This document shows positions 53,116 to 61,982 of a DNA stretch of 64,000 nucleotides, piece after piece. Origin of the DNA: an uncultured Acidobacteriota bacterium (GTDB lineage: Bacteria > Acidobacteriota > Thermoanaerobaculia > UBA5066 > DATFVB01). Location: contig CAWEYG010000002.1 in the NCBI GenBank assembly GCA_963813155.1, positions 320,001 through 384,000 on the forward strand, read 5' to 3'. Under the pieces are notes generated by a model, which was not told the origin of the DNA, made no database searches, and saw nothing but the letters and a program-made list of their open reading frames with translations. Each line of letters starts with the position of its first letter. Within the stretch, counting starts at the first letter, position 1. The translations under genes were made by a program, and so were the position numbers.

Positions 53116-53742
53116 TCAGTAGTACCCCCGGTGGTAGGTCAGTGCGAACACAATCGGCAGCGCGACGAAGATGCTCAGGGCGAGAGCCGGAGCGAGGAAC
53201 GCGCTTGCGATCCCCAGCAGCGCGACAATCAACTGGACCCCGAAACGCCGCACAATGTAGCGCCGTTGGCGGGCTGTCGGCTGTTCTGTGAGGTGAGAAT
53301 GGTCCGCGACGAACCACACTCCTGCCAGCGTCGAAGTACAAGCGGCGAGATTGGCGCCATAAATTGCGAGCGCTACCGGCGCGAGAGGGTAACGACCGAG
53401 GACCGCGGTCGAGAAGGGCAACACGGCAATCGTGAATAGACAGAGCATGTTCGCCCAGATCAGAGCGATCTTTACGCCGCGCAGCGAGGCGAAAATCAGG
53501 TGGTGGACGAGCCAGTAGTACGCAACGATTGCGAAGCTCAGCGCGAAGGTCCCGAGCCTCGGTGCAATCAGGACGAGCCCGTGCGCCAGTTGGGACACGC
53601 CGCCTTCAGGAGGTCGTACGTCCAGGACGAGGAGCGTCAGCGAAACCGCGAAGACGCCGTCGCTAATCCCTTCTGTCCGGTCGGTTCGATATCTCCGACC
53701 GGTTCTCAGTCTTTCCTCATTCGACGAACCATCGCCCCTCAT
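53116..53742 (-). CDS. TMEM175 (DUF1211) potassium-channel family protein
   Basis: RTEGISDGVFAVSLTLL, YWLVHH, LPFST. Confidence 0.85.
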   Translation of the reverse strand: MRGDGSSNEERLRTGRRYRTDRTEGISDGVFAVSLTLLVLDVRPPEGGVSQLAHGLVLIAPRLGTFALSFAIVAYYWLVHHLIFASLRGVKIALIWANMLCLFTIAVLPFSTAVLGRYPLAPVALAIYGANLAACTSTLAGVWFVADHSHLTEQPTARQRRYIVRRFGVQLIVALLGIASAFLAPALALSIFVALPIVFALTYHRGYY

Positions 53743-53864
53743 GAAATTCTCCCGACAGCTACTTTTCCGTACGCTCGCTCGCCAGCTACGACGATCACGA
53801 AATTACAAAGGCGGTGGTGGGTCCATTCGAACGCTGACACCGACTCGACTGCCCGGCGCGCATA

Positions 53865-53955
53865 GGCCAGCGACGAGAGGATCTCGCACGGGCCGAGACG
53901 GGTGCCGGAAGGTAAGCTCAAAAATTCTCCTGTGGCCGGAATTCTATCCTTCCCG
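53865..53955 (-). pseudogene. Remnant of a Ser/Thr kinase 5' end with its leader
   Basis: LSLPSGTRLGPCEILSSL matches the kinase start [18 protein letters not shown]; upstream TTCTCCTGTGGC..ATTCTAT matches 38425-38447. Confidence 0.6.
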
Positions 53956-54010
53956 CCAGGGCGATGAGGGTCGTGATATTAAGGCTTCCGCCCTTCCGGG
54001 GGCGACGACC

Positions 54011-54868
54011 GTGCAGCTACGAAGACTTCTCACCCGTTTGTACTGGAATCGTATTCACCAGACCCATGGGGTGGAGACGTGGATGCACGACCCTCTCGTG
54101 CGTCGATACATCAATGCTTCCCTGACGGGCAACCCGGACCAGTGGCCGATGGAGTGGTTTCGGACCGCGTTCGCCGCGAAGCCGTTTGAGCGGGGAATCA
54201 GTTTCGGCTCGGGGAATGGCGCGCTGGAACGCGATGTCCGAACGAAGGAAATCTGTCGATCGATCGTGGGTACGGACATCTCGCCGGCGGCGCTCGTCTC
54301 CGCCCGGGAGTCGGCTGCGAATTCCGGAATCGACGGTATCCGTTACGAGCGCATGGATTTCAACGATCTGCATCTGGCATCCAGATCGGTGGATATTGCG
54401 TTTTTTCATCAAGCACTCCATCACTGCGAACGTCTCGAAACGTGCCTCGACGAGGTTCACGACGCCCTCGAGCCGGGTGGAATTCTGTACCTCGACGAGT
54501 ACGTGGGCCCGTCGCGCGGCGATTGGCGAAAACCACTCCTGGCGCGCGCGGACGTTGTCTTTGGCTCTTTGCCGGGCTGGGTGCGGAGGCGGCGGCACCT
54601 TCAACTGCCGGTCGATTGGCGCGATCCCTCGGAGGCCATTCGTTCCTCCGAGATCCTTCCCGAGATTCGCCAACGCTTCGAGGTGCTCGAAGAGCGCGGT
54701 TACGGCGGCAACTTGCTGTCCGTGATTTTTCCGCATCTCAACCTGACCGCCGGGAGCCCGGCGGACGCGGCAGGAATCGTCCGCTTCCTGATCGAGGAGG
54801 AGAAGCGAGAGCTTGCAGGCGGCGCGCCTCCCTTCAGCGTCGTGGTGATCGCCCGGAATCATCGTTAA
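54011..54868 (+). CDS. Class I SAM-dependent methyltransferase
   Basis: SFGSGNG, DIS, FHQALHH, LEPGG, DEYVGP, DPSEAIRS. Confidence 0.85.
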   Translation: MQLRRLLTRLYWNRIHQTHGVETWMHDPLVRRYINASLTGNPDQWPMEWFRTAFAAKPFERGISFGSGNGALERDVRTKEICRSIVGTDISPAALVSARESAANSGIDGIRYERMDFNDLHLASRSVDIAFFHQALHHCERLETCLDEVHDALEPGGILYLDEYVGPSRGDWRKPLLARADVVFGSLPGWVRRRRHLQLPVDWRDPSEAIRSSEILPEIRQRFEVLEERGYGGNLLSVIFPHLNLTAGSPADAAGIVRFLIEEEKRELAGGAPPFSVVVIARNHR

Positions 54869-55472
54869 CCTGGCCGTTCCGGCTCAGAGTTCTCTCGTAC
54901 AGCTCGTCGATCCAGCCGTGCAGGGCCCAGAAGTGCACGTTGTGCGGCGACGTCTCGGGCGACCCCATCCCCGCGCCTTCGAGCCCCGGGTGATCCGCGC
55001 CGAATCGGTGCCGCTCGTAGATCGCGATCATCGTGTGCGAGACGTCGTGGAGACCTCGAAACGGATGCTCCGCCGTGGGCGGCGATTCCAGGAAGCGGCC
55101 GAGCTCGTCCGACGTGCCCGATCGGACGATGTCCTGAAGCCGGCCGAGCGCGCCCGCGAGATATCCGGGCTGGGCCCAGGAGAAGAACTGCGACAGCCAG
55201 TACGGGACCTCGCGCCACGGGCGAAGGGAGACTTCCGCTGTGCCCGACTCGCGGACCATCGGCTCGAAGGCTCTCATCAGCACACGGTGGTACTCGAGGA
55301 ATTGCGCGCCGCTGCCCGGCTCGCCCGGCGCGACCAGGTCCGGGAACTCCGACTCGAAAACGCGGAGGCGCCGCCCTTCCGGCCTCCGCGCCGCGTGCCA
55401 CCTCCCGTGCGAGGCGGACAGCGGCTTCACCGCAAGGTCGAGCGGGTCCGGAAGTCTCACTATCGTTCCCAT
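54834..55472 (-). CDS. Small tyrosinase-like (type-3 dicopper) protein
   Basis: HGRWH, FLEYHR, LHDVSH and MG...SP...FWALHGWID, matching the CuA/CuB histidine pattern. Confidence 0.65.
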   Translation of the reverse strand: MGTIVRLPDPLDLAVKPLSASHGRWHAARRPEGRRLRVFESEFPDLVAPGEPGSGAQFLEYHRVLMRAFEPMVRESGTAEVSLRPWREVPYWLSQFFSWAQPGYLAGALGRLQDIVRSGTSDELGRFLESPPTAEHPFRGLHDVSHTMIAIYERHRFGADHPGLEGAGMGSPETSPHNVHFWALHGWIDELYERTLSRNGQVNDDSGRSPRR

Positions 55473-55483
55473 CGCGCGGGCGC

Positions 55484-55516
55484 AAAAAAAGGGACACGTT
55501 TTTTTCGACGTGTCCC
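55484..55516 (-). terminator. Rho-independent terminator after the peptide gene
   Basis: - strand GGGACACGT-loop-ACGTGTCCC-TTTTTTT. Confidence 0.75.
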
Positions 55517-55551
55517 GAAAATCGAGTTAACCCTTCGAGACGGGCGAGTTC

Positions 55552-55767
55552 TTAGCTTCCGGCGATGACGGTCGAGGGTGGCGGCGGAAGGTCGTGCTGG
55601 CCGGTCTCAATCTGGTTTCCCCGCAGGATCGACCGGATTTGCGCCAGGAAATGTGCGATCGGGGAGACGCCGGGGGCCGTGGGACGCGGGACGGGCTTGT
55701 GGGGAACGGCGAAAAGCTGGACCGAGACGAGCAGCGACAGGGAAAACGCGAGAAGAACTTTTCTCAT
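55552..55767 (-). CDS. Small secreted peptide (71 aa), candidate signalling precursor
   Basis: AGGAGG RBS; signal peptide MRKVLLAFSLSLLVSVQLFA; amphipathic helix IAHFLAQIRSILRG; HDLPPPP near the C-terminus; terminator follows. Confidence 0.75.
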   Translation of the reverse strand: MRKVLLAFSLSLLVSVQLFAVPHKPVPRPTAPGVSPIAHFLAQIRSILRGNQIETGQHDLPPPPSTVIAGS

Positions 55768-55843
55768 GGTTTTCCTCCTTTGCCCTGCTCATCGCGGGCC
55801 GGAGGAAAACGGGACAGCCGGAGCGGCTATTTCGGGATGGAGC

Positions 55844-57181
55844 TCAGGCGGCGGACCAGCGTTGCGTCTCGTCTTTCTTGAAACGATCCAGGAAACGGCT
55901 CACCTTTTCGAGGCGCGAGAGACTCAGATCCGCCTCCGTCAGGTATTCGACCGCGCGAGCGGCTTCGGCGGAGAGCCCGAGCTCGTGAATTCGGGGAAGG
56001 ATCTTCTTACAGGTCTCGACGGCCTCTGCCTCGCGCTCGAGATGAAGGAGCGCTTCCGCGATCCGGAGCTCGATCCGAATCTCATCCCAGCCGAGATTCC
56101 GGGACCGATAATCCGCGCGCAGCTGGACGCCGATATCGTAGACGTCCTGGTGGCGATCCTCGAGCCGAGCGACTTCGACGAGACCTGCGCGAATGCTCAC
56201 CAGTTTTCTGTGATCACCCGTCCGTCGAATGATCTCCGCAGCCCTCGCATAGTGACGCTTGGCGTCTGTCAGGCGATTCACCTGGATCAGGTCGCTGCCG
56301 AGATTCAAATGAATGGTTCCCAGGAGCCGCGTGTCCAAGTCCGCTTCGCCGCGCGCGAGGAGATCCTCGTAAATCCGAATCGCATCCAGCCTCCTTTCAA
56401 GGTCGGCGAAAATCACCGCCCGAACGATCCGGCAGCGGGCCTGGCGCGGAAAGTCCTCGAGAAGGCCCTGGAGTCTCTCCGCCACGTCGAGGGCCGCCAG
56501 GGCGGCGTCCGCGCGGCCGAGATCCCTCAGGGCGAGCGCGCTCACGTAGCTCCAGAACGCGAGATCGTCCTCCGGAACGCGGCTGAGCGTTTCGATCACG
56601 GACCGGGCCTTTTCAAGCTCTTCGAGAGCCCGCTCCGACTCCCCTTCGGAGAACAGGGCGTAGGCCACGACCGTCCGCAGCACGCCTTCGAGCCCGTCTG
56701 CGCCGAGAGTTTCGCGGTCGGGCGCTTTTTCGAACGAGGAAAGGGCCGATCGGGCGATTCGGCCCGCCAGGGGAACGTCCCGCCGCAGGAGCTCGCGAAC
56801 GAGAGCGCGCGCCGCCTCGTAGGACGGCGGCGACCAGGAGAAGCCCTCGCGGACGGGAGACGAGAACGCTTCGACGATTTCCGCGCGCGTCTCTTTCCGG
56901 CCCGGCGCGATTGCGTCTGCCCGTTCTCGCGCCCGGCGCGCGATCGCGTCGAAATCGACGGAGTCTCCGGCCGCGTCCGGCCGATTGTCGCCGGCCTCGA
57001 CGAGGCCTCGCGCGAACGGCAGCGCGGCGGCGAGCTGCCGAATCGATTCGAGCCGGAGGCGGCAATCCTTGCACTCGGAAAGGTGATGCTGCATCTCGCC
57101 GGCGAGAGCCCGGTCGGCTTCGCCCTGCGCGTAATCGAGCCAGTCCAGCTCTTCGAAATGCCGCCGCGGCGTTGCGTTCAT
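55844..57181 (-). CDS. Zinc-finger (HxxxCxxC) anti-sigma domain fused to a TPR-like helical domain
   Basis: HLSECKDC ZAS motif; TPR-like repeats (ALALRDLGRADAALAAL, NLGSDLIQVNRLTDAKRHYARA); no obvious TM; ATGA overlap with the sigma stop. Confidence 0.8.
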   Translation of the reverse strand: MNATPRRHFEELDWLDYAQGEADRALAGEMQHHLSECKDCRLRLESIRQLAAALPFARGLVEAGDNRPDAAGDSVDFDAIARRARERADAIAPGRKETRAEIVEAFSSPVREGFSWSPPSYEAARALVRELLRRDVPLAGRIARSALSSFEKAPDRETLGADGLEGVLRTVVAYALFSEGESERALEELEKARSVIETLSRVPEDDLAFWSYVSALALRDLGRADAALAALDVAERLQGLLEDFPRQARCRIVRAVIFADLERRLDAIRIYEDLLARGEADLDTRLLGTIHLNLGSDLIQVNRLTDAKRHYARAAEIIRRTGDHRKLVSIRAGLVEVARLEDRHQDVYDIGVQLRADYRSRNLGWDEIRIELRIAEALLHLEREAEAVETCKKILPRIHELGLSAEAARAVEYLTEADLSLSRLEKVSRFLDRFKKDETQRWSAA

Positions 57182-57714
57182 GTGGCTTCCCCGAGGCTGC
57201 GACGAAGCCGGCCGAGGCAGCGGCTGATCATTCGCTTCAGGCTGTCGGGCTTGTAGCCCATCGTCTCGGCGAGGTCGGAGGTGCGCCGGTTCCTCCAGAA
57301 CCTCGAAGCGAGGACCTGCCGACAGTTTTCCGACAGGGAGGGCCATGTCTGCGCGAGCCGAAGCCCCGCCGCGACGGGCTCCGCCTCGGGAGCGCACTCC
57401 ACGGGATAGGCGCAATCCTCTTCGCGCAGCTCGTCGAGCGCGACTTCCTTCGCGCCGGAACGGTAGCGGTTTCTCCAGTAGTCCAGGCAGCGGCGGCGCG
57501 CGATGACGACCATGAGGCCGCCCGTCGCGCGGCCGCCCCGGCGCGACTGCACGAGGAAGTCGACGGCAGCCTGCTGGAGGACGTCGTCCACGTCTTGCGC
57601 CGGGATTCGGAATCCGAATTGGGCAATCTTTCTCGCGGCGGGCAGAACGGCCCGCAACACGTCTTCATCCGACTCCCGAACCGGCGGAGCTGCCGCGGAC
57701 AATTCCTGCGCCAA
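57178..57714 (-). CDS. ECF-type RNA polymerase sigma factor
   Basis: DVDDVLQQA, IARRRCLDYWR (region 2); LSENCRQVL...DLAETMGYKPDSLKRMISRCLGRLR (region 4); TATAAT at 57724-57729 upstream of the TTG. Confidence 0.85.
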   Translation of the reverse strand: MAQELSAAAPPVRESDEDVLRAVLPAARKIAQFGFRIPAQDVDDVLQQAAVDFLVQSRRGGRATGGLMVVIARRRCLDYWRNRYRSGAKEVALDELREEDCAYPVECAPEAEPVAAGLRLAQTWPSLSENCRQVLASRFWRNRRTSDLAETMGYKPDSLKRMISRCLGRLRRSLGEAT

Positions 57715-57754
57715 GTTGAGAGCATTATACGACCCCGGGAAGGCCCGATTCGTT

Positions 57755-58432
57755 ATGCTCCCGGAGGTGGGAGCGGACGTCCTCTTCGATAACGTCACGA
57801 AAATCTACGGCGGAGCGCGCGGCACGATGGCGCTCGACGCCGTCGATCTCCGGATCCGCGAAGCCGAATTCGTCGCGATCGTCGGGCCCTCCGGCTGCGG
57901 CAAGTCGACGCTGCTGCACCTTGCCGGAGGAATCGACACCGCGACCACGGGCCGGGTCGAGGTCGCGGGAAGCAACCTCGCGCTCCTGCCCGAGCGGGAG
58001 CTGACGCTCTACCGCCGCCGCAGCGTCGGAACGGTGTTTCAATTCTTCAATCTCCTGCCCGCGCTGACCGCTCTCGAGAACGTGGAGTTGCCGCTGGCGC
58101 TCGACGACTCGCCGGAAGCGCCGGTCCGGGCGCGCGAGCTGCTCGCCCGGGTCGGCCTTTCCGACCGGGAGCGCGCCTACCCTTACGAGCTCTCGGGCGG
58201 ACAGCTGCAGCGGGTCGCGGTGGCGCGCGCCCTGTCGGCGAGGCCGGCGCTCCTGCTCGCCGACGAACCAACCGGCAATCTCGACTCGGCGGCCGGCACC
58301 TCGGTGCTGGATTTGATCGACACGCTTCGGCGGGAAGAAGGGGTCACGGTCCTGCTCGCCACGCACTCTTCGGAGGCCGCCGCGCGCGCAAACCGGATCG
58401 TCCGTCTCCGCGATGGAAAGATCGTCCCGTGA
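57755..58432 (+). CDS. ABC transporter ATP-binding protein (AttE/LolD-like)
   Basis: GPSGCGKST, LSGGQLQRV, ADEPTGNLD. Confidence 0.9.
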   Translation: MLPEVGADVLFDNVTKIYGGARGTMALDAVDLRIREAEFVAIVGPSGCGKSTLLHLAGGIDTATTGRVEVAGSNLALLPERELTLYRRRSVGTVFQFFNLLPALTALENVELPLALDDSPEAPVRARELLARVGLSDRERAYPYELSGGQLQRVAVARALSARPALLLADEPTGNLDSAAGTSVLDLIDTLRREEGVTVLLATHSSEAAARANRIVRLRDGKIVP

Positions 58433-61002
58433 GGCGGCGGCAAGCTCCGGGGACCCTCCTCTTCGCGGGCCTCGTCCTTCGCCCCGCGCGGCGGGACCCC
58501 TTTCGAGTTCTCCTCTCGATCGCCGGAGTCGCGATCGGCGTCGCCGCCGTGGGCTCGATCCACCGCGCGAACGAAAGCATCGTGGCCTCGTTCCGAGGCG
58601 CGGTCGAGTCCGTTTCGGGTAAGGCCCGGCTCACCGTGCGGGGGGTCGGCGGGCTGCCGGACGAAACGGCGGCGAAGCTTCGCTGGGTGTGGGAGATCGG
58701 GTCCTTCGCGCCGGCGATCGATCGTTTCGCGGTCGCGGCAGACGGCACGGACGAGCCGGTCGAAATCTTCGGCGTCGACCCGACGAGCGAGGCCTCTCTG
58801 CGCTCGTACCGGATTCTCACCCCGAAGACCGGACTCGAAAAGATCTTCGATAAGGACGCGGCGCTCGCGCCTCTCCCCTTCGTCGAGCGCCACCGTACCC
58901 GCCTCGGCGACGAACTTCCGCTGTTTGTCAACGGGCGAAAGAAAACGCTCGTGCTGGCCGGGATTCTCGAATTCACGGGGCCCGCGCGAGCCTCGGGGGG
59001 ACAGGTCCTGGTCACGGGCCTGCGAACGGCGCAGGAGCTCTTCGCGCTGCCGGGCCGCGTCGATCGAATCGACATCGCGTTTCCCGATTCGGTCCCCTTC
59101 GATTCCGTCCGGGCGCGGGTTTCCGGCTCTCTGCCGCCCGGCGCCCGCGTCGAGCGGCCCGAGGCTCGAAGCGAAACCGCCGACAAGATGACGCGGGCGT
59201 TTCGCTTCAATCTCGCGGCCCTCGGGTCGATCGCGCTGCTGGTCGGAATGTTCCTGATCTACAACACGCTTTCGATCTCGGTCTTGCGCCGGCGCCCCGA
59301 GATCGGAACGCTCCGGGCGCTCGGCGCTTCGCGGCGAGCGATTTTTCAGGCTTTCGTGACCGAAGGGCTCGCGATCGGCATCGCGGGGACCGCCGCCGGC
59401 GAGGCGCTCGGTTTCGCGCTGTCGAAGGCGGCGATGGCCGCGGTCGGGGGAACCGTCGTCAACATCTACCAGCCGACGGCATCGCTCGCCCTCTCGCAGT
59501 CGGCCGAACCCTTCGCGACGGCCGCCGCCGTGGGACTCCTCGCTTCCCTCGCCGCCTCCCTCGCGCCGGCCGCCGAAGCGGCGAGCATCGCGCCCGCGAC
59601 CACCATGCGAGCCGGTTCCGTCGAATCGGGCCGACGGCTTCGGGCGCCGAGGCTCGCCTCGGCGGCGTTCGCGCTGCTCCTCGCGGGACTCGGGGCCGCG
59701 TTCGCTCCGCCCGTCGCGGGATTTCCGGCGTTCGGATTCGGGGCCATGGCCTGCGCCGTCGCGGCGCTCGCGTTGATTTCCCCGGCGGCGGCCCTCGCGG
59801 TCGAACGCGGCGTGCGAGACCCCGCCCGCCGGGTCTTTCGCGCGCCCGGCCGCCTCGCCTGCGCGTTCTTTTCCGGCAACGTCTCGCGAAACGCCGTGGC
59901 GATCGCCGCGCTCTCCCTCGCCCTCGGCATGGCGGCCGCGATGGCGGTCATGATCTCGTCGCTGCGGGAGACCGTGCGGACCTGGGTGAGCCAGAGCGCG
60001 GCCTCCGATCTCTTCCTGAAATCGGCGACGGGAAGCCGCCGGGGGCTCATCGGCACGATCCCGGGCGAGGCGGCGGACTTCCTTCGAGGCATCCCCGGCG
60101 TCGCTCTCGTCGATCCCTTTCGCGCGATCGACGTCGCCGACGAGAGCGGCGCTCCTTTCACGATCGGCTCGGGAGATTTTGGAATCGGCACGAAAACGGG
60201 GGGACTGCCGTTCTTTTCCCGGCGCGACCCGGCGGCCGTTCTTTCCCTCGCGCGCGCCCGCGGCGAAGTCTTCGTCTCGGAACCGTTCGCGCGGCGCTTC
60301 CGAAAATGGCCGGGCGACCGGGTCTCGATCCCGACTCCCCGGGGACCGAGGACGTTTCCCATCGCGGACGTCTATTCCGACTTCTCCAACGATCGGGGCA
60401 CCGTGGTGCTCGACCGGCCCCTGTTTCTTTCCCTGTTCCACGACCCCTCGCTCACGACGATCGGCATCACGGCGGCCCCCGGGGTTTCCCCCGAGCGGCT
60501 TCGCGACCAGATCCTCGCGGCAGCCGCAGGGAAATTCGCCTTCACGATCCTGACGAACCGCACGCTCCGTTCGGAGGTGCTGCGCATCTTCGACGCGACT
60601 TTTGCCGTGACGTACGGCCTCGAGGGCATCGCCCTGATCGTCGCGGTCCTCGGCGTCGTAAACGCGTTGTTTTCGCTCATCCTCGAGCGGCGCCGCGACC
60701 TCGGCCTCCTGCGCGTCCTCGGCGCTTCGCCGCGACAGCTTCGGCGGTCGATCGCTCTCGAGGCCGGACTGATCGGCGGCTGTTCGCTGCTGCTCGCGAT
60801 GTTCGCGGCCTCGGCGTTCGCCGCGCTCCTGATTCTCGTGATCAACCGCCAGTCGTTCGGATGGACGATCCGGACGAAGATCCCTTGGATCGAGCTCGCG
60901 GTCGCGTTCGCGCTCGTCCAGCTCGTCACGCTCGTTGCGAGCATCGGCCCCGGCCGACTCGCGGCGGCGGTCGATCCCGCGCAGGCGCTGAGGGAAGAGT
61001 GA
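58429..61002 (+). CDS. Duplicated FtsX-like ABC permease (AttFG-like)
   Basis: SIAGVAIGVA, FLIYNT...RRRPEIGTLRALGA, INRQSFGWT. Confidence 0.85.
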   Translation: MRRRQAPGTLLFAGLVLRPARRDPFRVLLSIAGVAIGVAAVGSIHRANESIVASFRGAVESVSGKARLTVRGVGGLPDETAAKLRWVWEIGSFAPAIDRFAVAADGTDEPVEIFGVDPTSEASLRSYRILTPKTGLEKIFDKDAALAPLPFVERHRTRLGDELPLFVNGRKKTLVLAGILEFTGPARASGGQVLVTGLRTAQELFALPGRVDRIDIAFPDSVPFDSVRARVSGSLPPGARVERPEARSETADKMTRAFRFNLAALGSIALLVGMFLIYNTLSISVLRRRPEIGTLRALGASRRAIFQAFVTEGLAIGIAGTAAGEALGFALSKAAMAAVGGTVVNIYQPTASLALSQSAEPFATAAAVGLLASLAASLAPAAEAASIAPATTMRAGSVESGRRLRAPRLASAAFALLLAGLGAAFAPPVAGFPAFGFGAMACAVAALALISPAAALAVERGVRDPARRVFRAPGRLACAFFSGNVSRNAVAIAALSLALGMAAAMAVMISSLRETVRTWVSQSAASDLFLKSATGSRRGLIGTIPGEAADFLRGIPGVALVDPFRAIDVADESGAPFTIGSGDFGIGTKTGGLPFFSRRDPAAVLSLARARGEVFVSEPFARRFRKWPGDRVSIPTPRGPRTFPIADVYSDFSNDRGTVVLDRPLFLSLFHDPSLTTIGITAAPGVSPERLRDQILAAAAGKFAFTILTNRTLRSEVLRIFDATFAVTYGLEGIALIVAVLGVVNALFSLILERRRDLGLLRVLGASPRQLRRSIALEAGLIGGCSLLLAMFAASAFAALLILVINRQSFGWTIRTKIPWIELAVAFALVQLVTLVASIGPGRLAAAVDPAQALREE

Positions 61003-61982
61003 GCTTCCTCGCCGCAGCCGCAGCCGCCCTCAATCTGCTCGCCGCCCACCCCGATTCGAAAACGGAGTGGTGGTACTACACGGGGCAACTCCAGGCGGCG
61101 AGCGGAAGGCAATTCGGATTCGAGTTGACGTTCTTCCGCGTGAAGCTTCCCGACGGCGACGACATCGACGCCGCGCATTTCGCGCTGAGCGATCTTTCGC
61201 GCAGGCAATTCACGTTCCAGGAGAAGCTGCACCGGCCGTTTCCGGGAATCGCCGGCGCGGATTCTGAGAAGCTCTTCGTGTTCAACGAGAGCTGGGAAGT
61301 CCGCGAGAAGGCGGGACGCCACGTGCTGAGGGCCGGAAACGGCAAAAACGCCGTCGAGCTGGAGCTCACCCCCTCGACGCCGCCGATCCTGAACGGGATC
61401 GGCGGGATCTCCCGGAAGGGCCCCGGAGCCGACGATTATTCGCACTACGTCTCGATCCCGCGTCTCGAGGCCAGGGGAACGATGACGGCCGGCGGCGAGT
61501 CGGAGCACGTTTCCGGAATCGCCTGGTTCGATCACGAGTTCGGGCCGGGCGGGCTTCCGGCGGGGCTCGCCGGGTGGGACTGGTTCTCGGCGCAGCTCTC
61601 CGACGGAACGGCGCTCATGCTGTATCGACTGCGGCTCCGGGACGGTTCGGTCTCGGACTTTTCCTCGGGAACGTTCGTCGACGCCGGCGGAAAAGCAACG
61701 AGCCTCTCGAAACCCGATTTTCAGGTTCGCGCGACCGGGAGCTGGACCTCGTCGAAGACTCGCGCGACGTATCCCTCGGGTTGGGTCGTGACCGTCCCGT
61801 CCCGGAGCATCGAGCTGAAGATCGCGCCCCGTCTCGCCGACCAGGAGCTCGTGACGTCGAACTCCACGCGCGTCACGTACTGGGAAGGAGCCTGCTCCGT
61901 GTCCGGCATGCGAGCCAGACGGCCGATCACCGGGACGAGCTACGTCGAGCTGACGGGATACGCGGGGAAGGACTTACCCTGA
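60999..61982 (+). CDS. AttH/CrtC-like lipocalin-domain protein
   Basis: HPDSKTEWWYYTG, AWFDHEF, GWDWFS, YWEGA, YVELTGY. Confidence 0.85.
   Translation: MSFLAAAAAALNLLAAHPDSKTEWWYYTGQLQAASGRQFGFELTFFRVKLPDGDDIDAAHFALSDLSRRQFTFQEKLHRPFPGIAGADSEKLFVFNESWEVREKAGRHVLRAGNGKNAVELELTPSTPPILNGIGGISRKGPGADDYSHYVSIPRLEARGTMTAGGESEHVSGIAWFDHEFGPGGLPAGLAGWDWFSAQLSDGTALMLYRLRLRDGSVSDFSSGTFVDAGGKATSLSKPDFQVRATGSWTSSKTRATYPSGWVVTVPSRSIELKIAPRLADQELVTSNSTRVTYWEGACSVSGMRARRPITGTSYVELTGYAGKDLP

Follow-up and report, generated by a model that had tools for sequence, protein, structure and literature searches.

A candidate peptide-linked sigma/anti-sigma module in the class Thermoanaerobaculia of the Acidobacteriota

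Four genes lie in tandem on the minus strand of a 64,000-nucleotide stretch of DNA (the window) from an uncultured soil bacterium of the class Thermoanaerobaculia, phylum Acidobacteriota (assembly GCA_963813155.1, contig CAWEYG010000002.1, positions 320,001 to 384,000). In the direction of reading they specify an extracytoplasmic function (ECF)-like sigma factor, a 445-amino acid protein with a zinc motif and tetratricopeptide repeats (TPR), a 71-amino acid pre-peptide and a probable type-3-copper protein; for brevity the second of these is called the receptor below. A first-pass annotation, made from the sequence, had singled out the first three as a unit. All of the elements which it described were found on the minus strand and the sigma/receptor/peptide unit stands, but the type-3-copper gene, a promoter-like element shared by the peptide and copper genes, and the wider distribution of the arrangement had been overlooked. 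We consider the module to be real, conserved, widespread in one class of Acidobacteriota, and probably new. It was followed in two families of the Thermoanaerobaculia, that of the window (the home family) and a second family. One unpublished genome (G002, locus L005) is counted among the seven home-family genomes and the 12 receptor-peptide pairs discussed below, and its receptor and peptide are identical to those of a public record (L028/P0009). Also unpublished are G008, a comparison genome in the element counts, and G555 and G558, which belong to the 96 second-family genomes.

The sigma gene occupies an open reading frame (ORF) of 57178-57798, within which the start was placed at TTG 57714 by comparison with six orthologous loci, resulting in a protein of 178 amino acids (57178..57714). 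The TATAAT box noticed in the first-pass annotation is present 9 nt before this start (57724..57729) and probably serves as the -10 element of the sigma/anti-sigma transcript; its position 8-9 nt before the start, conserved in 7/7 home-family loci, suggests that such transcripts are leaderless. No -35 partner of the box was recognized, and a consensus scan returned no full sigma-70 promoter. The gene product is divergent. It matches positions 4-164 of the 165 of TIGR02937 with 34 bits against a cut-off of 42.9, TIGR02989 with an E value of 7e-9, and Pfam Sigma70_r2 and r4 with 16 and 17.4 bits, both below cut-off. A sigma gene is there, as had been claimed, but its assignment to the ECF group is weak. 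Upstream of distant receptor homologues in the second family, Sigma70 r2/r4 domains were recognized in 10 of the 11 frames tested, most of which pass the Pfam cut-offs; four further loci, which had no upstream sigma frame by the criterion chosen, were left out of this comparison. Start codons are located 8-10 nt after a -10-like box for both the sigma and the copper-protein genes, which suggests, from the nucleotide sequence, that leaderless mRNAs are frequent in this lineage, those with TTG and GTG starts included.

The receptor gene (55844..57181) is joined to the sigma gene by an ATGA overlap of stop and start codons (57181-57178) which is kept in 7/7 loci, in agreement with the translational coupling proposed earlier. 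The protein is a candidate cytoplasmic anti-sigma factor consisting of a zinc-type domain, a linker and a TPR superhelix. Its zinc motif H33-x3-C37-x2-C40 (DNA 57062-57085) and a further histidine, H8, are invariant in 16 sequences; this histidine lies 25 residues upstream of the motif, as in ChrR. The Pfam family TPR_12 is matched above cut-off (36 bits), zf-HC2 below it (15.7 bits, cut-off 22.2), and ChrR and RsrA give weak matches (E 0.045 and 0.08, respectively). There is no hydrophobic segment, the best 19-residue Kyte-Doolittle mean being 1.12. These data bear out the description of the product as a soluble protein with an HxxxCxxC motif and TPR repeats. An AlphaFold model is all-helical, with a mean predicted local distance difference test (pLDDT) value of 84.7, and shows a small helical domain at the N-terminus, connected by a disordered linker (residues ~56-75) to a long superhelix of helix pairs (~77-436). 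The gene is single-copy in the source genome.

Scans of the receptor against Pfam and NCBIfam revealed generic TPR families and no RRNPP family profile, and the protein is therefore not an RRNPP family member by sequence. A weak match to the TPR chaperone family SctY of NCBIfam was recorded (E 3e-4; 21 bits, cut-off 70). A Foldseek search, which had been proposed as a check on RRNPP affinity, does list the peptide receptors of this group, namely phage and Bacillus Rap-pheromone complexes, RapF, RapJ and NprR, but on an equal footing with LGN/Pins and designed TPRs, at E values of ~1e-5 to 5e-4 and template modelling (TM) scores of 0.4-0.55. The Rap of phage phi3T, for example, scored E 2.4e-5 with TM 0.42/0.51 and a root-mean-square deviation (rmsd) of 12 Å, and LGN E 2.0e-5 with TM 0.50/0.61. 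The match of the predicted fold to peptide-binding TPRs is generic and no proof of membership.

A gap of 76 bp containing AGGAGG separates the receptor gene from the 71-codon ORF (55552..55767). The predicted pre-peptide opens with a Sec-type signal (residues ~1-21; Kyte-Doolittle value 2.17). A stretch rich in Pro and Arg and a segment of moderate amphipathicity (36-49) come next, and residues 56-68 (DNA 55564-55602) form the conserved motif GQHDLPPPPSTVI. Signal peptides were judged throughout by hydrophobicity and A-x-A sites and not by a dedicated predictor; in the sister-genus peptides an A-x-A precedes Arg-Pro. Common to the 12 home-family sequences are the Sec-type N-terminus, a hydrophobic, moderately amphipathic middle and an invariant PPP preceded by H-x-L/F, the histidine (His58) being present in 11 of them; no Tyr or Trp is conserved in this set. 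In the peptide frame the ratio of nonsynonymous to synonymous substitution rates (dN/dS) is 0.32-0.93 (seven pairs). The amphipathic helix described earlier has a modest hydrophobic moment of 0.58, which was reached by 42-49 of 500 shuffled sequences; since about 10% of shuffles match it, this detail is weak. The rest of the description of the 71-amino acid ORF, with its gap, ribosome-binding sequence, signal and terminator, was recovered. The terminator-like hairpin 3' of the gene (55491..55516) has nine pairs followed by T7 and occurs at the five loci that represent the window's clade (its own genus plus two metagenome contigs) but not in the sister genus; it is not exclusively the peptide gene's own, as its 3' arm doubles as the promoter-like element of the next gene.

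That next gene (54834..55460) encodes a probable minimal, PvdP-like type-3-copper protein of 208 amino acids with a tyrosinase/haemocyanin core. Its start at GTG 55460 is deduced from the position of the preceding element; the ORF from ATG 55472 is also open. Eight histidines are invariant (18, 22, 58, 138, 142, 157, 176 and 181), Pfam Tyrosinase is approached with 20.6 bits (cut-off 22.6), and a profile comparison with PDB sequences found PvdP at E 2e-4. Foldseek returned no match to the model at E <= 0.001. With VIA-align, by which Z values under ~13 on helical bundles can reflect a merely common arrangement, the top 26 rows were all type-3-copper proteins, and haemocyanin (Z 10.9), prophenoloxidase and PvdP (Z 10.3, rmsd 3.5, 174 aligned residues, 24% identity) all fall at Z 10-11. 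The four-helix copper-site core is probably shared with PvdP and the other type-3-copper proteins, and the FL-x-YHR and H-x3-H ... HFW-x-LH-x-WID motifs can be recognized. Unlike PvdP the window protein has only ~208 residues and no signal peptide (by hydrophobicity), and, unlike in type-3-copper proteins generally, its second CuA histidine appears by eye to be off the usual place.

The arrangement is not confined to this genome. Among 61 relatives 22 gave some match to the receptor; full-length orthologues (40-82% identity) were found only in the seven home-family genomes, and the remaining matches were partial TPR matches. Scans of sequence collections added contigs, and after removal of duplicates of the same genomes 12 distinct home-family loci reached far enough downstream to be read; a peptide ORF lies 3' of the receptor in all 12. 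When 401 genomes of the class were searched with a profile, weaker receptor relatives (E 1e-16 to 1e-29) came to light in 39 of the 96 second-family genomes. Fifteen of the 25 loci examined in that family encode proteins of ~435-492 amino acids with an N-terminal H-x3-C-x2-C, and in 11 of 14 evaluable loci the receptor gene is followed by an ORF for a signal peptide, a basic amphipathic region and an end rich in Pro. The Pro-rich sequence is often at the very C-terminus (PPKP, PDKP, WPKP, PPG), and two of the ends (HSDLPTPP and HDDLPLPP) resemble the QHDLPPPP of the window. The expectation that homologous receptors would be accompanied by signal-peptide ORFs with a conserved hydrophobic-Pro motif thus holds in both families, between which receptor identity is ~20%. 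The gene after the peptide is an ABC (ATP-binding cassette) ATPase in the second family and the copper protein in the home family; the conserved core is therefore sigma factor, receptor and peptide. One second-family locus (L089; G099:C5:114300-119200) has two tandem signal-peptide ORFs after the receptor, one ending in HPKP and the other containing SVPKP.

Receptor paralogues are common in the second family. Five of its genomes hold 6-12 members each, and in two genomes 24 members were recorded, 13 of them full-length; 11 of these 13 have a sigma-like frame upstream (4 and 7 pairs), and by a strict heuristic a peptide ORF stands beside 6 of the 13. In a representative library 2,472 clusters match the receptor profile at E <= 1e-30. 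Of the best 149 matches 138 are 425-475 amino acids long, and 134 of these carry the zinc motif. In one relative (P0163; 456 amino acids; source Logan, its longest contig being 7,832 bases) the zinc anti-sigma domain has given way to an XRE-type HTH_3 domain (residues 19-72, 41.6 bits), joined to the TPR sensor of the family, whose profile is matched at E 8e-98. Proteins of the receptor family form at least 10 clusters in the Atlas, most commonly from Acidobacteriota.

Contact between receptor and peptide was examined in two ways, both of which had been suggested in the first-pass annotation. Complexes were predicted from receptor residues 76-445 and peptide residues 22-71. Three runs gave interface scores (ipSAE, interaction prediction score from aligned errors) of 0.63, 0.57 and 0.64, and the best of three controls 0.00. 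The mark of 0.63 is reached by 58 of 80 solved complexes and by 2 of 110 mismatched pairs, a calibration which holds only roughly here since our own unpaired alignments were used. Contact agreement between the runs was at least 38%. On the peptide side the confident contacts are made by residues 56-68, the conserved motif, along the concave face of the superhelix, and the predicted receptor contacts are residues 129-136, 174, 209-216, 249-256 and 286-296. N293 and D243 are the only contact positions invariant across both families, and R246 is nearly so.

For covariation the 12 receptor-peptide pairs were divided according to peptide residue 60 (Leu in eight, Phe in four), and the 254 receptor columns present in all rows were compared. 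Five columns separate the Leu60 from the Phe60 peptides without overlap, and of these four (253, 256, 292 and 296) belong to the 26 positions predicted to be in contact (hypergeometric p = 4e-4); the model places receptor residues 253 and 256 nearest to peptide residue 60. The label requires 2-3 changes on the receptor tree and so does not reflect a single inherited event. Several computational results thus support the prediction that the peptide motif binds in the TPR groove.

A bipartite sequence, TGTCCC(C)-N16-CGAT, is located at fixed spacing before the peptide gene in all home-family loci which reach it. The window's copy, of the form TGTCCC-N15-GCGAT, is at 55791..55816 on the minus strand. 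An in-frame ATG within the element was considered as a start codon and rejected: in the window's clade its frame is not that of the peptide, and L036 has ATA in its place. A second copy (55471..55496) stops 10 nt short of the conserved A/GTG at which the copper-protein gene starts, and in the window's clade it overlaps the 3' arm of the terminator-like hairpin. The source genome contains 16 matches to TGTCCC-N15-GCGAT, of which 14 share the extended consensus TGTCCCCnTTTC-N8-CGCGATnGGAA, these 14 all lying upstream of an ORF on the same strand. The ORFs concerned encode signal-peptide proteins of no known function, a PKD protein, a transglutaminase-like protein, a CHASE3 histidine kinase, and UvrD-like, HsdM and HicA proteins. 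The seven genomes with the module have 16, 17, 10, 9, 8, 8 and 5 matches, the 54 relatives without it 0-6, and a reversed control 0-1. The genome with 17 holds the locus twice: in G001 contigs C2 and C14 (L025 and L004) both carry the 3' part of the receptor gene together with the peptide and copper genes, the peptides being identical and one copy lying at a contig start; this is probably an assembly duplicate which inflates the count. In the second family a different sequence, TAGGGA-N15-CACTCC, lies between receptor and peptide genes in 10 of 15 loci. Present in 90 of the 96 genomes (e.g. G099, G462 and G597), with up to 33 sites per genome, and in none of four home-family genomes, it looks, to judge from this distribution, like a family-wide promoter type. 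The TGTCCC element fits a small regulon of a family-specific sigma factor, for which the adjacent sigma is the obvious candidate; the odds that this sigma transcribes the peptide gene are about even.

Two groups of element sites lie outside the window. At C2:310238, C3:141474 and C1:551881 of G000 the element is followed by a near-identical stretch, GGGGTATGATTTTCG..., opening a short ORF which begins with MIFE, MLFE or MIFA; the ORFs are possibly members of a small paralogous family of leaders or peptides. At C7:11612, C8:15303 and C2:880949 of the same genome it lies inside a repeat of ~45 nt upstream of UvrD-like helicase fragments and HsdM, on short contigs with HicA/HicB nearby, which looks like a repeated mobile or defence island with the same promoter type.

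An RRNPP system has been defined by two adjacent genes (PMC10075063), and a secreted pro-peptide gene adjoins the receptor gene at 12/12 and 11/14 loci of the two families. As with Rap/Phr, a cytoplasmic all-helical TPR receptor is followed by the gene for a small pro-peptide with a Sec signal, the conserved part of the peptide is near or at the C-terminus, the helical N-terminal output domain is set apart from the TPR sensor, and there are several paralogous pairs per genome in the second family; P0163, with HTH_3 and TPR, has the classical RRNPP receptor layout. The module is unlike these systems in that its output domain is a zinc-type anti-sigma domain and its output a sigma factor, in having no RRNPP profile match, and in its host, the diderm Acidobacteriota; the accounts of RRNPP-type systems consulted describe them for Bacillota and their mobile elements only. 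Of the resemblance claimed earlier the gene layout survives, a receptor followed by a small secreted-peptide gene, but by sequence the receptor is no member of the family.

In being soluble, and encoded directly downstream of and translationally coupled to the sigma factor, the receptor resembles the zinc-binding (ZAS, class I) anti-sigma factors RsrA and ChrR, the characteristic zinc motif of which it possesses though zf-HC2 is below cut-off. ChrR carries a cupin and RsrA no sensor domain, in contrast to the TPR superhelix of ~360 residues found here. There is also a likeness to FlgM/sigma-28 and to the TPR chaperones of type III secretion, in which an exported small protein and a cytoplasmic transcription regulator are encoded together; the latter chaperones bind short Pro-containing motifs in the groove. 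The module peptide differs in having a Sec signal and in not being itself the anti-sigma factor, and no secretion machine is found nearby. In those sections of the ECF re-classification on which we draw (PMC7826278), TPRs appear only in the C-terminal extension of ECF42 and the FecR-like protein of ECF267, and soluble anti-sigma factors are reported in 10 ECF groups. The modes of control described for ECF sigmas in the parts of the literature consulted are membrane anti-sigmas, proteolysis, redox, kinases and C-terminal extensions. A search of the full-text literature, with subscription journals and supplements outside its range, did not find a peptide-linked TPR anti-sigma module; the sigma group could still stand in the ECF-group supplement tables of PMC7826278, which were likewise outside that search.

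The best explanation of these observations, to which we give a probability of roughly 0.4, is a three-gene, peptide-controlled sigma/anti-sigma module with local cargo. In it the ECF-like sigma would be held by the N-terminal zinc-type domain of the soluble protein, the C-terminal TPR superhelix would be the receptor, and the H-x-L/F-P-P-P motif of the small downstream protein would be its ligand. Occupancy by the ligand might shift the anti-sigma between holding and releasing the sigma factor, in whichever direction, much as the N-terminal domain of Rap proteins changes position when a Phr peptide binds. Since every peptide keeps a Sec-type signal, the ligand is taken to arrive at the receptor by export, cleavage and re-uptake, which would make this an RRNPP-like circuit with a sigma output. 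If the adjacent sigma reads the element, which stands before the peptide and copper genes and at ~14 other sites in the genome, an auto-induction loop would result. As to a possible route of import, the source genome has seven matches to SBP_bac_5, the Opp-type binding protein family. The broader proposition, that Thermoanaerobaculia use genetically encoded, Sec-exported peptides as signals between cells or for self-sensing, which are taken up again and bind a TPR anti-sigma receptor, an RRNPP-like quorum-sensing logic which arose outside the Bacillota and acts on ECF-type sigma factors, is at present rather doubtful, and a quorum-sensing reading of the module is, by analogy, possible.

A number of results weigh against peptide control, and some of those which concern binding speak at the same time for another explanation, namely that peptide and receptor make no direct contact and that the small and copper proteins are ordinary targets of the sigma factor or simply neighbours. 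The TPR domain would then sense another cytoplasmic cue, or the zinc-thiol motif would sense oxidants, as that of RsrA does. Predictors may put Pro-rich peptides into TPR grooves without real binding, and the interface score is the model's own confidence, with a peptide pLDDT in the complex of 46-49, below 50 throughout, besides its rough calibration. Conservation across the two families is no higher at the predicted contacts than elsewhere (entropy 2.10 against 2.09, p = 0.63), the covariation sample is small (12 pairs and 2-3 events), and the similarity to the Rap fold is no better than that to LGN or designed TPRs. By the heuristic used no peptide ORF was detected in 3 of the 14 distant loci and 7 of the 13 paralogues. 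Several other genes behind the shared element also appear, by eye, to encode signal-peptide proteins. An explanation without contact accounts less well for the scores of 0.00 of all three controls, for the concentration of covariation in the predicted contacts, and for the adjacency of the core genes, which is kept down to ~20% receptor identity while the downstream cargo changes from copper protein to ABC ATPase. We regard it as tentative, and somewhat unlikely.

The promoter evidence, too, leaves room for doubt about which sigma factor reads the element. The genes behind it are a mixed set, the source genome holds 14 other ECF sigmas, and the sigma operon itself has the TATAAT box and no copy of the element. 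Its enrichment is limited to the home family, so that the comparison with relatives is confounded by kinship, and in the second family TAGGGA-N15-CACTCC precedes two of the six paralogous peptide genes found in the two genomes.

Re-uptake is a further weak point of the peptide-controlled module as formulated above. Neither an importer nor a processing protease is linked to the locus, and an SbmA/BacA importer was not found in the source genome (90.8% complete). Acidobacteriota are a diderm lineage, and a re-imported signal would therefore have to cross or bypass the outer membrane. In the home family, moreover, 7-9 residues follow the motif and the middle segment is conserved as well. An alternative is sensing coupled to secretion without re-import: the TPR domain would capture the unexported pre-peptide, the sigma factor would report the rate of export, and the signal would be the state of secretion or of the envelope and not cell density. 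Synthesis of a Sec substrate of 71 residues is finished before it leaves the cytoplasm, where its unexported pool would be open to the receptor, and the two partners would meet without an importer. The complex score and the covariation serve this explanation equally, the internal position of the home-family motif requires no trimming, and the weak SctY match (21 bits against 70) is a hint in the same direction. The logic would be like that of FlgM, which is exported, or of the type III secretion TPR chaperones, which departure of the substrate sets free. Set against this are the second-family motifs, often at the very C-terminus (PKP, PPG), which is where mature RRNPP signals usually reside, and the several paralogous modules with diversified peptides in one genome, which suit specific signals better than a gauge of secretion. 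On balance we hold sensing of the unexported peptide to be unlikely.

That the small protein is instead a precursor or copper-delivering 'caddie' of the type-3-copper enzyme, the two forming a peptide-modification pair which sigma and anti-sigma only regulate, is very improbable: in 11 of 12 home-family loci the genes adjoin and both have the element upstream, PvdP, which acts on a peptide precursor, is the closest solved relative by identity, and peptide His58 is kept in 11/12, but the peptide has a signal and the copper protein none, so that their compartments should differ, the peptide has no conserved Tyr or Trp, and the copper protein is found in just one of 400 other genomes of a phylum sample and is missing from the second-family modules and from the metagenome contig L039, the sole home-family locus of this kind, where neither a copper gene nor a second element occurs within 659 nt after the peptide gene.

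Should peptide control of the module prove true, a peptide-gated soluble anti-sigma would be a new class of input for ECF signalling, and the module would be a first candidate for peptide communication in the Acidobacteriota, which abound in soil but of which few members have been cultured. The receptors form a large family, with thousands of sequence clusters in metagenomes (the 2,472 above), and one confirmed pair would therefore annotate many genes. Peptide Leu/Phe60 together with receptor residues 253 and 256 is the predicted specificity pair.

Of the genes surrounding the module, a class I methyltransferase gene (53741-54868, plus strand) and a TMEM175-type potassium channel gene (53116-53742, minus strand) lie downstream, and neither is kept beside it in the sister genus. 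On the other side is a divergent operon on the plus strand which has the same arrangement in the sister genus. It encodes an ABC ATPase (57755..58432; Pfam ABC_tran 5e-30), a double-FtsX, MacB-like permease (58429..61002; FtsX 2e-33, MacB_PCD 3e-13) and a CrtC/AttH-like lipocalin protein (61002..61982; CrtC 1e-44, Lipocalin_9 9e-43). Just 40 bp separate the sigma start (TTG 57714) from that of the ABC ATPase (ATG 57755), and since the conserved TATAAT falls within this gap the two divergent units must share or overlap their control regions.

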